IMG/VR virus record: IMGVR_UViG_2778261535_000016
DNA length: 2,561 bases
Origin: a virus
Taxonomy: Duplodnaviria; Heunggongvirae; Uroviricota; Caudoviricetes
Reading direction: 5' to 3' (one strand)
Notes under the pieces: generated by a model
The model's database searches: none
The model's input: only the letters and a program-made list of their open reading frames with translations
Told to the model about the DNA's origin: nothing
Program-made: the position numbers and the translations under genes
Part shown: positions 1-2,561 of the stretch, piece by piece
Numbering within the stretch: the first letter of the stretch is position 1
Layout: each line of letters begins with the position of its first letter

Positions 1-564
1 GTACCAGATAACAGGCCAACTCAGATTTATGCTGTTTCAGGCTCAATAAACACCTCAGATGGTAGGGAAAAAAGCGACCCGCTAACTACGAGTGAACTCA
101 GTCTGAATATGTCCCCTGGTTATGAAGGTGATGCAATTTTGGATGCATGGGGAGATATCAGGATCGTAGCTTTTCGCTGGCTTGCGGCCGTCAGAGAAAA
201 GGGAGATGGTGCCCGCTGGCATTTTGGTGTCATAGCACAACAGGTAAGAGATACTTTTCTCGCACATGGGGTTGATGGAACCCGGTTTGGTCTTCTCTGT
301 TACGATGAATGGGATGATCAATACGAGCCAGTGATGGCGGTAAGGACGATTACTGAAGTTGTGGATGGTGTTGAAATTGAAAGGGAAGAAGAATACGAAA
401 CAGAAGAGCGAACTCTGGTACGCAAGGCCGGAAATAGGTGGGGGATTCGTGCTGACCAGTGTTTATGGCTTGAGTCTGCTTATTTGCGTAGAAGAATCGA
501 AAAAATAGAGTCACATCTTGCGGAGCTGAATAATTTGCTGAATCCGGAGGGGGGATCTAAGTAG
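1..564 (+). CDS. 3' portion of a larger gene whose 5' end lies outside the window; probable phage tail fiber/tailspike C-terminal domain resembling an S74-type intramolecular chaperone (auto-cleaving) domain
   Basis: Frame 1 is open from base 1 with no stop until TAG at 562-564; the ORF track starts at the first ATG (109) but the frame continues upstream. The translation contains ...FGVIAQQVRD... and a C-terminal ...YLRRRIEKIESHLAELNNLL helix-like segment, a pattern I associate with the chaperone-of-endosialidase (peptidase S74) C-terminal domains of tail fibers. The canonical Ser-Lys dyad cannot be confirmed by eye. An acidic stretch EIEREEEYETEE is present. Confidence 0.55.
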   Translation, partial: VPDNRPTQIYAVSGSINTSDGREKSDPLTTSELSLNMSPGYEGDAILDAWGDIRIVAFRWLAAVREKGDGARWHFGVIAQQVRDTFLAHGVDGTRFGLLCYDEWDDQYEPVMAVRTITEVVDGVEIEREEEYETEERTLVRKAGNRWGIRADQCLWLESAYLRRRIEKIESHLAELNNLLNPEGGSK

Positions 565-740
565 TCTGCTTGCTTATTGCACAGTACGTGAAGCTAATTC
601 AATTGTAACTGAGAGGAACACTAGACCATTTTCTAAACGTAATTTTCATTGCCGTAGAAGGTAGAAATACAGTGCTTTGAGGTAACTATTATTCATAAAT
701 GGTTTATTATGTGTGCGTCTTCAATAGTAAGGAGATTGTT
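565..740 (+). promoter_or_regulatory. AT-rich intergenic region upstream of the lysis cassette; probable site of the lysis-operon promoter and/or upstream terminator (no hexamers confidently assignable)
   Basis: 176 bp non-coding gap between the stop at 562-564 and the first lysis-gene start region. It is visibly more AT-rich than the flanking coding sequence and contains a near-tandem GTAGAA-g-GTAGAA at 654-666. No well-spaced sigma70 -35/-10 pair was found by eye. Confidence 0.3.
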
Positions 741-779
741 ATGCGTAATAAATGGTGTCCATTATGTCAGCTCATCTAA
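741..779 (+). other. 12-codon upstream ORF (MRNKWCPLCQLI) preceded by a consensus Shine-Dalgarno, overlapping the start of the first membrane-protein gene in a different frame
   Basis: AAGGAG at 729-734 followed after a 6-nt spacer by ATG at 741; frame 0 reads 12 codons to TAA at 777-779. The membrane-protein ORF begins at ATG 752 or 764 in frame 2, inside this mini-ORF. Confidence 0.3.
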
Positions 780-1168
780 CCACTGACCATCTAAATCAAT
801 GGCTTAGCATGAGCTCTTTTGCTGCTGTTATCGTAGGCGTTCCGCCAGAAGTGGCGCTCGGTGCTTTGGCTGGCGCGGTGATTTTTGTTACCTCTGCAGT
901 AGAGTACCCCATCCGTCGCCGGGTGCTCCTGTCGATGCTCAGCTTTCTTTGCGGCCTTCTCTTTTACAAACCAGCAGCATCAATTCTTATCGGCATAGCC
1001 AGCCTGATCCCTACCATCACGCAGGACTCTTTTGAAAAAGGGATTGTTTTCTCTGCAGGCGCATTCGTGTCAGCAATTGTCGCTGTGCGTATTGGTATAT
1101 GGCTCTATCACCGTTCCGATAATCCACGCGAGTTAATTCCGGGGAGAAAAGACGATGGTAACGCATGA
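752..1168 (+). CDS. putative holin: small polytopic membrane protein (138 aa, about 4 hydrophobic segments, charged C-terminal tail)
   Basis: Hydrophobic segments at roughly residues 18-50 (interrupted by PPE), 57-71, 75-89 and 97-119, followed by a hydrophilic charged tail [19 protein letters not shown]. GxxxG/small-xxx-small motifs (GALAG, SAGAFVSA) are present. Sits immediately upstream of, and co-oriented with, the endolysin. The start is ambiguous: ATG 752 (MVSIM...) or in-frame ATG 764 (MSAHL...). Confidence 0.6.
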   Translation: MVSIMSAHLTTDHLNQWLSMSSFAAVIVGVPPEVALGALAGAVIFVTSAVEYPIRRRVLLSMLSFLCGLLFYKPAASILIGIASLIPTITQDSFEKGIVFSAGAFVSAIVAVRIGIWLYHRSDNPRELIPGRKDDGNA

Positions 1169-1463
1169 GTTTTTTTTGCTTATCACCAATGCAGTTATTT
1201 GCACTGGCATAGCAATTCGCGTTGTCACATTCCGGCGTAACGGCTCTCAACACAGAAGGTGGGGAGGATGGCTTGCTTATTTCCTGATTGTTGCTGCGGC
1301 CAGTATTCCTGTTCGTGTCGCCTATGCAATCTGGTTACGTACGCCAATGGCTGTGGATTTATCCGAGGTCATTATCAACGCTGTCATGCTAGCTGCGGTT
1401 ATTAAAACGCGCGGTAACGTCGTTCAGATTTTCAAAGTATCGAGGTCTAAACATGGAGATTAA
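1155..1463 (+). CDS. second small membrane protein (102 aa, 2-3 TMDs, basic C-terminus); holin/antiholin-like partner, role unresolved
   Basis: SD-like GGGGAG at 1141-1146 with an 8-nt spacer to ATG 1155. Overlaps the upstream gene by 14 nt and the endolysin start by 11 nt. Hydrophobic segments at about residues 6-24, 39-61 and 69-83, with a basic loop [12 protein letters not shown] and a basic tail [19 protein letters not shown]. Confidence 0.55.
1170..1177 (+). repeat. T8 homopolymer tract at the junction of the two membrane-protein genes (codons 6-8 of the second gene)
   Basis: Directly visible run of eight T at 1170-1177, immediately after the upstream gene's TGA stop (1166-1168), encoding F-F-L in the 1155 frame. 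Confidence 0.9.
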
Positions 1464-2082
1464 ACAATTCCAGCGAGCTGCTGGTATCAGCGAGTCACTG
1501 TCCGCACGCTGGTTCTCGCATATAACGTCTGCGATGAAAGAGTTTGGTATCAGCAAACCAGAAGATCAGGCTATGTTTATTGCTCAGGTCGGGCATGAGT
1601 CTGGAGGCTTCACCCGGTTGCAGGAGAATTTCAACTACAGCGTCAGCGGACTGGCTAACTTTGTTCGGGCTGGGCGTCTCACTCAGGGACAGGCCAACGC
1701 ATTGGGGCGACGCGCAGGCGAACCACCATTGCCACCTGAGCGCCAGAGAGCTATTGCCAATCTGGTGTACAGCAAACGCATGGGGAACAATGCCCCCGGC
1801 GATGGCTGGAATTACCGAGGTCGCGGACTTATCCAGATTACCGGTTTGAATAACTATCGTGACTGCGGAAACGGCTTGAAAGTGGACTTGCTGGAGAATC
1901 CTGAACTGCTGGCGCAGGACGAATACGCGGCTCGTAGCGCGGCGTGGTTCTTTGCCAGCAAAGGATGCATGAAGTATACCGGTGATATTGCACGTGTAAC
2001 TCTGATTATCAATGGTGGCCGGAACGGCATCGACGACCGGCGCGCGCGGTACGTCACTGCCAGTAAGGTGCTGGCTATATGA
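1453..2082 (+). CDS. endolysin, glycoside hydrolase family 19 (chitinase-like lysozyme) type; cytoplasmic, no signal peptide or SAR domain
   Basis: 209-aa product with the GH19 signature [12 protein letters not shown] (Glu49 codon at 1597-1599), a second Glu at position 58 (LQENFNY, codon 1624-1626), and [12 protein letters not shown] and INGG motifs. The N-terminus [16 protein letters not shown] is hydrophilic. GAGG at 1442-1445 lies 7 nt before the ATG. The stop TGA 2080-2082 overlaps the next start as ATGA. Confidence 0.92.
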
Positions 2083-2561
2083 TCTGGGAATTCGTAAAAG
2101 CATATTGGAAACAACTGCTTATCGTGGTGATGCTTGCTGCTCTGTTCATCGTCGGAGTGGTTGCCTGGAATATACACGGCAGTCGCCAGTACGATGCCGG
2201 GTATGCGCAGGCGGAAGAAGACCGCAAAGCCGAAGAAGACAAAGTTCGTCAGTACTACGAACAGGAGAAAGTGACCAATGAACGTGAAGCTCAGCAGAGG
2301 ATCGACCAGGCGCGCAATGATGCTCTTGATGCTGCCGCTCGTGCTGGCAGGTTGCAGCAACAACTCTTTGCCATCCGTGAGCAGCTCAGGCAGTATAACG
2401 CCATTGTCGGCGCTGGGACGTCAGCCGCAGACACCGGAGTTTTGCTTGCCGACGTGCTCAGCAAATCTCTCGAGAGAAACAGACAACTGGCAGAGTATGC
2501 TGACCGGGCAGCCGAAGCCGGAAGAGTCTGCGAAAAACAGTATGACACCCTGACAAGATAG
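2079..2561 (+). CDS. Rz: i-spanin (Rz-like): N-terminal transmembrane anchor plus periplasmic coiled-coil domain
   Basis: 160-aa product with a single N-terminal hydrophobic segment [18 protein letters not shown] (residues about 13-30), then an Ala/Glu/Gln/Arg-rich sequence typical of a coiled coil, and a Cys near the C-terminus (RVCEKQYD). ATG 2079 overlaps the endolysin stop (ATGA). Contains an embedded lipoprotein ORF in the +1 frame. Ends at TAG 2559-2561. Confidence 0.85.
2278..2553 (+). CDS. Rz1: o-spanin (Rz1-like) outer-membrane lipoprotein, entirely embedded in the +1 frame of the i-spanin gene
   Basis: AGGAG at 2263-2267, 10 nt before ATG 2278. Product [26 protein letters not shown]... 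has a basic n-region, hydrophobic h-region and lipobox L-A-G-C (Cys26 codon 2353-2355). Ser at +2 (not Asp) is consistent with outer-membrane sorting. The 66-aa mature part is Pro/Ser-rich with two further Cys (C56, C60). Confidence 0.85.
   Translation: MNVKLSRGSTRRAMMLLMLPLVLAGCSNNSLPSVSSSGSITPLSALGRQPQTPEFCLPTCSANLSRETDNWQSMLTGQPKPEESAKNSMTP

Follow-up and report, generated by a model that had tools for sequence, protein, structure and literature searches.

The first 564 nucleotides of the window, by which we mean the whole 2,561-nt stretch of DNA analyzed here, very probably encode the C-terminal intramolecular chaperone domain (CIMCD, MEROPS S74 type) of a single tailspike belonging to an epsilon15/phiV10-like (Uetakevirus) prophage of E. 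coli. The identity of the domain, its conserved catalytic residues, its predicted fold, the gene order and the modular exchange were all observed directly in the data. It is a typical representative of a domain family that has been studied in depth, and its genomic context is already on record in the literature; our findings are of practical use chiefly for annotation and leave the current understanding of S74 domains and of Uetakevirus genome organization unchanged. Only two points are mildly unusual: a 12-residue insertion after the catalytic dyad and, upstream of the window, a rare receptor-binding module tentatively assigned as a beta-propeller.

In window nt 1-564, frame 1 has no stop between the first base and a TAG at 562-564 and comprises 187 codons. 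The features of this region are as follows, with residues numbered from the first codon of the window.

Positions 1..564, + strand: 3' end of the tailspike gene, codons 705-891 plus the TAG stop (open reading frame, PHROG 1171, identity to a longer contig).
Positions 1..54, + strand: last 18 residues of the predicted mature spike (stalk end, ...VPDNRPTQIYAVSGSINT), including R5 at nt 13-15 (alignment to 3GW6 and 4UW8).
Positions 55..561, + strand: C-terminal intramolecular chaperone domain of the Peptidase_S74 type, 169 aa (PF13884; 3GW6, 3GUD and 4UW8; AF2; Foldseek).
Positions 55..57, + strand: Ser19 (S723 in full-length numbering), which is predicted to be the nucleophile and would become the N-terminal residue of the released chaperone (alignment, conservation).
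Positions 70..72, + strand: Lys24 (K728), the other half of the Ser-Lys dyad, predicted to act as general base (alignment, conservation).
Positions 85..129, + strand: post-dyad linker with a lineage-specific insertion of ~12 aa, lying within aa 29-43 (alignments; the placement of the gap is ambiguous).
Positions 220..246, + strand: conserved core HFGVIAQQV, aa 74-82 (alignment of 50 homologues).
Positions 319..423, + strand: long beta-hairpin "tentacle", aa 107-141, with the acidic run EIEREEEYETEE (DSSP on the model, endoNF alignment).
Positions 451..540, + strand: C-terminal amphipathic helix, aa 151-180 (AF2 model; 3-4 spacing read from the sequence).

A preliminary description of this DNA, made from its letters and open reading frames, had proposed that the upstream gene ends in an S74-like chaperone domain whose visible 187 residues carry a GVIAQQV core and a terminal amphipathic helix, and the searches bear this out with similarities well above chance level. 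The window translation matches PF13884 (Peptidase_S74, "chaperone of endosialidase") with 43.6 bits and E=3.7e-11, above the curated gathering score of 22, and the match covers all but the last of the 58 profile positions (1-57), from aa 19 to aa 90 of the translation. A phmmer search of the same translation against the PDB returned the CIMCD of endoNF (3GW6, E=4e-31), as well as GA-1 gp12 (3GUD, E=3e-20), T5 pb1 (4UW8, E=5e-7) and the tail spike protein 9VVR. The translation also matches the tail spike family PHROG 1171 (E=2e-79), and in PHROG families of tail spikes and tail fibres it is the C-terminal end that the 187-residue fragment aligns with.

The AlphaFold (AF2) monomer model of the CIMCD fragment, built with 50 homologues, has a mean pLDDT of 87.3 and shows the fold expected of S74 domains, namely an alpha/beta body, a beta-hairpin at 107-141 and a helix at 151-180. 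When the model was compared with the PDB using Foldseek, the only significant matches were 3GW6, 3GUD, 4UW8 and the eukaryotic MyRF ICA domain 7DC3, at a probability of 1.00. Within the core, residues H74, G76, A79 and Q80 are invariant among the 50 homologues, and the GVIAQQV segment (aa 76-82) holds three of these positions. The terminal helix carries a 3-4 hydrophobic repeat (L162, I166, I169, L173, L176, L180) and is predicted to form a trimeric coiled coil, a role that has been described for the C-terminal helix of such domains (PMC8326128, PMC4690869). Upstream of the CIMCD, a sub-threshold Pfam match to PF12219 (residues 691-722 of the full protein, E=3e-3) hints at a triple-beta-helix stalk, with weak resemblance to the end of the endosialidase stalk; the start of the window aligns with the stalk ends of endoNF and T5, and the full-length model is of low confidence in this region.

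The Ser-Lys dyad, which the preliminary description had not found evident by eye, is present as S19 and K24. Residue S19 occupies PF13884 profile position 1 and aligns with endoNF S911 and T5 pb1 S1264, and K24 aligns with endoNF K916 and T5 K1269. Both reference serines were mutated to Ala in the crystal constructs (S911A, S1264A), and the register becomes visible when upstream sequence is included: the window reads YAVSGSINT-S-DGRE-K-SDP against YLGSNPIVT-A-NGER-K-TEP in endoNF, and T5 pb1 shows the same register with NT-A-DARL-K (S1264A). Among the homologues, K24 is invariant (50/50) and S19 is found in 49/50, the remaining one having Cys. Residue R5 (R709), conserved in at least 90% of the 50 homologues, lies 14 residues before S19, in register with endoNF R897 and T5 pb1 R1250, both of which have been reported to take part in cleavage (PMC8326128, PMC4690869). 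The window translation thus contains the residues that mark S74 members, a Ser-Lys dyad (TSDGREK) with a stalk Arg 14 residues upstream, and from the alignments the scissile bond is predicted to be T18|S19 (T722|S723 of the full protein).

Two metagenome homologues, P0005 and P0103, have Cys at the nucleophile position (INTCDGREK and INTCDARLK, respectively), which points to autoprocessing sites that use a Cys-Lys pair.

The acidic run EIEREEEYETEE (aa 125-136, nt 373-408) had been described as an unusual acidic insertion, a view that the structural and alignment data do not uphold. According to DSSP, the AF2 model contains strands at 107-121 and 124-141 that form a long two-stranded hairpin with a pLDDT of ~98, and the run is part of this hairpin. 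The surrounding W104-A143 segment is hypervariable across the homologues (8-109 aa, n=50) and generally D/E-rich; in the window it comprises 39 aa with 13 D/E. We therefore rejected the run as a true insertion, since the 50-homologue alignment shows a segment of variable length and the tentacle of endoNF has the same net length as that of the window. Such tentacles have been described for endoNF and T5 pb1 as clamping the upstream stalk and the receptor-binding domain (PMC8326128, PMC4690869).

An insertion is found instead in the linker that follows the dyad. Between K24 and D44 of the DAxLDAW motif there are 19 aa in the window versus 7 aa in 47/50 homologues; endoNF and ZX5 both have the 7-aa linker, with a 12-residue gap relative to the window. 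The additional 12 residues are common to two other tailspikes, that of E. coli 85.0412 (NZ_CP122448.1, locus L001) and the protein P0101, and are conserved in diverged E. coli copies. They are without counterpart in the solved structures and are modelled as a short helix with a pLDDT of ~70-82.

The position of this lineage-specific insertion, a few residues past the dyad, is the point that might speak for a domain that has the S74 fold but does not cleave and stays on the mature spike as a structural cap or adhesin. We consider this very unlikely, since conservation extends to the nucleophile Ser, the base Lys and the stalk Arg alike, and each of them aligns with a residue that has been validated by experiment; moreover, a retained chaperone blocks receptor binding in T5 pb1 (PMC4690869), so that retention would probably be disadvantageous.

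For a self-cleaving chaperone, the mode of action can be drawn by homology with endoNF, GA-1 gp12, T5 pb1 and MyRF (PMC8326128, PMC4690869). The C-terminal helices (aa 151-180) would form a trimeric coiled coil that brings three nascent chains into register, and the three acidic beta-hairpin tentacles (aa 107-141) would clamp the stalk and the receptor-binding domain while the trimer folds. Correct folding of the stalk would then bring together R709 of a neighbouring chain, S723 and K728, whereupon the Ser-Lys dyad would cut between T722 and S723, releasing the 169-aa chaperone and leaving a mature spike of 722 residues on the virion. Trimerization, cleavage and release of the tailspike chaperone, as well as the trimer contacts of the tentacles and the coiled coil, are what we infer from these relatives and from a monomer model. 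The predicted placement of the mature C-terminus of the tailspike at T722 would be useful for the design of recombinant receptor-binding proteins or tailocin grafts.

The complete gene was recovered from a longer contig. An exact-sequence look-up of the endolysin encoded in the window retrieved several E. coli contigs, one of which (GCA_014639545.1, L006) is 100% identical to the whole window, at L006:8549-11109. The full tailspike gene occupies L006:6437-9112 and has 891 codons, and the upstream extension confirms the earlier proposal of a tail fiber or tailspike: the protein consists of a phiV10-like anchor, a receptor-binding module (aa ~205-700), a stalk-like segment (691-722) and, at the extreme C-terminus, the S74 chaperone domain (723-891), with PF13884 matched on the full-length protein as well. 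The anchor of this genus is recognized by homology to the first ~205 aa of phiV10 gp25 (PMC10408124), and aa 1-166 of the tailspike have 69% identity to this particle-binding anchor. The N-terminus also matches the anchors of Klebsiella depolymerases in the PDB sequence search. An NCBIfam search with the full-length tailspike gave no match.

The recovered loci also bear on whether the reading frame could be a decaying pseudogene of a cryptic prophage whose chaperone domain is no longer functional. Two findings point that way, the PGAP flag "incomplete; missing C-terminus" on the homologue of E. coli 85.0412 and a related contig, L007, in which the tailspike gene is split into pieces of 273 aa and 135 aa. 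However, the identical contig carries the frame intact, with 891 aa, as do six other loci (L003-L005, L008-L010), and the flagged gene of 85.0412 is an uninterrupted 918-aa frame. The CIMCD codons of the window and of 85.0412 differ by 31 synonymous versus 18 non-synonymous changes, and the adjoining lysis cassette and the upstream virion genes are complete. Decay is thus hardly credible, and an intact tailspike gene is the reading that we retain.

It should be noted that the RefSeq/PGAP pseudogene in L001:6745-9501 ends at L001 9219, ~60 codons into the chaperone, and the 918 codons actually present include the whole S74 domain; the flag looks like an annotation artefact.

The Pfam name of the domain, together with the annotations of many homologues, raises the question of whether the protein is an endosialidase that depolymerizes the K1 capsule. 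In the direction of this identity, endoNF is the nearest to the C-terminal domain among solved structures, weak sub-threshold matches to End_N_terminal and End_tail_spike (PF12218, PF12219) were obtained, and the model of the central domain resembles beta-propellers that include neuraminidases and the phi92 endosialidase. Against it, Pfam gave no match to an endosialidase catalytic family, and the PDB search gave no match to endoNF sequence outside the stalk and the CIMCD, a domain known to be common to unrelated spikes and fibres (PMC8326128).

The central domain was modelled in P0101, a homologous spike, and the full-length model, based on 8 sequences only, has a pLDDT of 53 overall and of 60-87 around residues 300-530. 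The best structural matches of its central domain are the non-sialidase beta-propeller platforms of the receptor-binding proteins (RBPs) of Staphylococcus phages phi11, 80alpha and P68, followed by other propellers such as neuraminidases, and a weak PF21311 match in the tailspike agrees with the propeller-platform reading. Tentatively, then, the modelled central domain may be a beta-propeller resembling the phi11/80alpha RBP platform and not the usual beta-helix. Given these better matches and the low confidence of the full-length model, we regard an endosialidase as highly improbable. Endosialidase (GH58) identity was rejected on the ground that its catalytic beta-propeller and beta-barrel domains were unmatched in the Pfam and PDB sequence searches; without such a match the name endosialidase should not be given to the protein, and the family name "chaperone of endosialidase" does not make it one.

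The tailspike with its terminal chaperone, as we read it, belongs to a modular system. Thirteen complete E. coli genomes are homologous to the window at the DNA level from a point at nt 40-46, immediately ahead of the INTSD motif, onwards through the lysis cassette. In the tailspike of 85.0412, one of these 13 genomes, the anchor is nearly the same as that of the window's tailspike (192/200 residues identical), whereas the middle parts are unrelated (117/504); the two CIMCDs, at 89% identity, have both the 12-aa insertion and the acidic hairpin in common. This comparison illustrates cassette exchange, in which the receptor-binding middle is swapped between an anchor and a CIMCD-plus-lysis region that both stay conserved; shuffling of anchors and receptor-binding domains has been described for Lederberg- and Uetakeviruses (PMC10408124). 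The CIMCD itself is an optional module within the genus, as epsilon15 gp20 and phiV10 gp25 are without an S74 domain.

The receptor-binding module (aa ~205-700; L006:7049-8548 corresponds to aa 205-704) is rare, with only 8 homologous clusters in 5.8 billion proteins, and it is found on three different virion anchors. In P0101, the same middle domain and CIMCD, 94% identical, are carried by a P22-type head-binding anchor, and in P0105 a 67%-identical middle domain is joined to a TSP1/Gp66-type N-terminal domain and to a more divergent S74 domain. It is conceivable, although we would put it at somewhat less than an even chance, that the rare beta-propeller RBP module and the CIMCD variant with the 12-aa insertion and acidic tentacle travel together as a cassette among three unrelated virion anchors, namely those of Uetakevirus, of P22 (head-binding domain) and of TSP1/Gp66 (N-terminal domain). 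If this is true, we would be dealing with an uncharacterized class of module that recognizes or depolymerizes E. coli surface glycans and needs a co-adapted chaperone in order to fold.

Homology to the P22-anchored spike (P0101; hit H54, E. coli AST215) ends at nt 519. Beyond this position, in window 520-561, the ~14 terminal residues that follow the coiled-coil helix read ...SHLAELNNLLNPEGGSK versus ...SRLAAIEKKLFDNECKL in P0101/H54, and from the sequence comparison the boundary at nt 519 appears to mark a second recombination junction, one that falls within the C-terminal helix.

Downstream of the tailspike gene, the window contains a complete lysis cassette on the same strand.

Positions 565..763, + strand: intergenic spacer of 199 nt between tailspike and lysis cassette; the moron slot in epsilon15/phiV10.
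Positions 764..1168, + strand: holin-like membrane protein with three transmembrane segments, homologue of epsilon15 gp23 (PF16931, E=6e-11; PHROG 198 holin).
Positions 1155..1463, + strand: holin, Phage_holin_3_7 (PF05449, E=5e-27; PHROG 217).
Positions 1453..2082, + strand: GH19 (chitinase-like) endolysin (PF00182, E=2e-9; PHROG 181, E=9e-92).
Positions 2079..2561, + strand: Rz-like i-spanin, DUF2514 (PF10721, E=1e-45; PHROG 312).
Positions 2278..2553, + strand: Rz1-like o-spanin in the +1 frame of Rz, with lipobox LAGC (PHROG 11621, E=6e-41).

The start of the holin-like gene at 764 is the conserved one, placed by alignment; a lineage-specific in-frame ATG lies at 752. The embedded Rz1 is annotated likewise in epsilon15 and phiV10. 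At the DNA level, the lysis cassette is 94% identical to that of vB_EcoP_ZX5, 88.7% to that of phiV10 and 82.8% to that of epsilon15, with the same synteny. By this measure the element belongs to the genus Uetakevirus, which comprises temperate podoviruses, or lies close to it. The order of genes is that of the genus: tailspike, an optional O-antigen moron, the gp23-like protein, holin, GH19 endolysin, Rz/Rz1 and the attachment site, and the prophage ends directly after Rz, beside yfgI-yfgH-yfgG-pdeF-ppx-ppk. The tailspike gene closes the structural part of the late region, with the lysis cassette directly after it, which is the normal order for the genus; the non-lambdoid, podovirus-like layout of tail fiber or tailspike followed by lysis that the preliminary description had suggested is accordingly the Uetakevirus order seen in epsilon15, phiV10 and vB_EcoP_ZX5.

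In epsilon15 and phiV10, the order is tailspike, O-antigen-modification genes on the reverse strand, lysis cassette, attP and integrase. The reverse-strand genes in the slot are an O-antigen ligase family protein and an alpha-polymerase inhibitor in epsilon15, and oac in phiV10. The slot (window 565-763 versus L002:4444-6037 and L011:4338-5525), which holds serotype-converting genes in epsilon15 and oac in phiV10, is empty here, and the prophage is therefore probably without modification of the host O-antigen from this locus. Scans of spacer 565-763 found no consensus terminator or + strand promoter, its RNA fold is no better than that of shuffled sequences (z = -0.05), and an Rfam search of the spacer gave nothing relevant, with one chance match at E=0.55.

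The end of the spacer contains a strong Shine-Dalgarno sequence, AAGGAGA (729-735), followed by an ATG at 741 that opens a 12-codon mini-ORF, MRNKWCPLCQLI* (window 729-779 in all), overlapping the conserved holin-like start (ATG 764) out of frame. The Shine-Dalgarno sequence and the ATG are kept in epsilon15 and phiV10; the length of the mini-ORF differs, and in phiV10 its stop lies just before the holin ATG. This element may be a leader or a translational-coupling device for holin synthesis.

Among known systems, endoNF of coliphage K1F (3GW6) shares 37-38% identity with the window across ~180 residues, together with the S-x4-K spacing of the dyad, the Arg 14 residues upstream, the HFGVIAQQ core, a tentacle of equal length and the C-terminal coiled-coil helix. 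Unlike in endoNF, the CIMCD of the window is attached to a non-endosialidase receptor-binding module and a Uetakevirus anchor, has the 12-aa post-dyad insertion and has a more acidic tentacle (13 D/E in 39 aa). T5 pb1 (4UW8) and GA-1 gp12 (3GUD) are alike in fold, in the catalytic Ser and Lys (and in T5 also the Arg), and in having tentacles and a coiled coil, but their identity is only 23-34% and their hairpin regions are shorter in the alignments; the host particle structure is the L-shaped tail fibre of a siphovirus for T5 pb1 and the neck appendage of a Bacillus podovirus for GA-1 gp12.

Within Uetakevirus, the tailspike ORF7 of ZX5 (PMC9782041) resembles the tailspike described here in its genus-type anchor, its C-terminal CIMCD and its position directly upstream of the lysis cassette. 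The two CIMCDs, however, are only 36% identical, and the ZX5 protein has an endosialidase-like central domain and is without the 12-aa insertion; the spacer between tailspike and lysis genes is 306 nt in ZX5 versus 199 nt in the window. Epsilon15 gp20 and phiV10 gp25 share with the window's tailspike a homologous anchor and a position upstream of a homologous lysis cassette with attP/int, but they lack the S74 domain and are separated from the lysis genes by the reverse-strand O-antigen genes.
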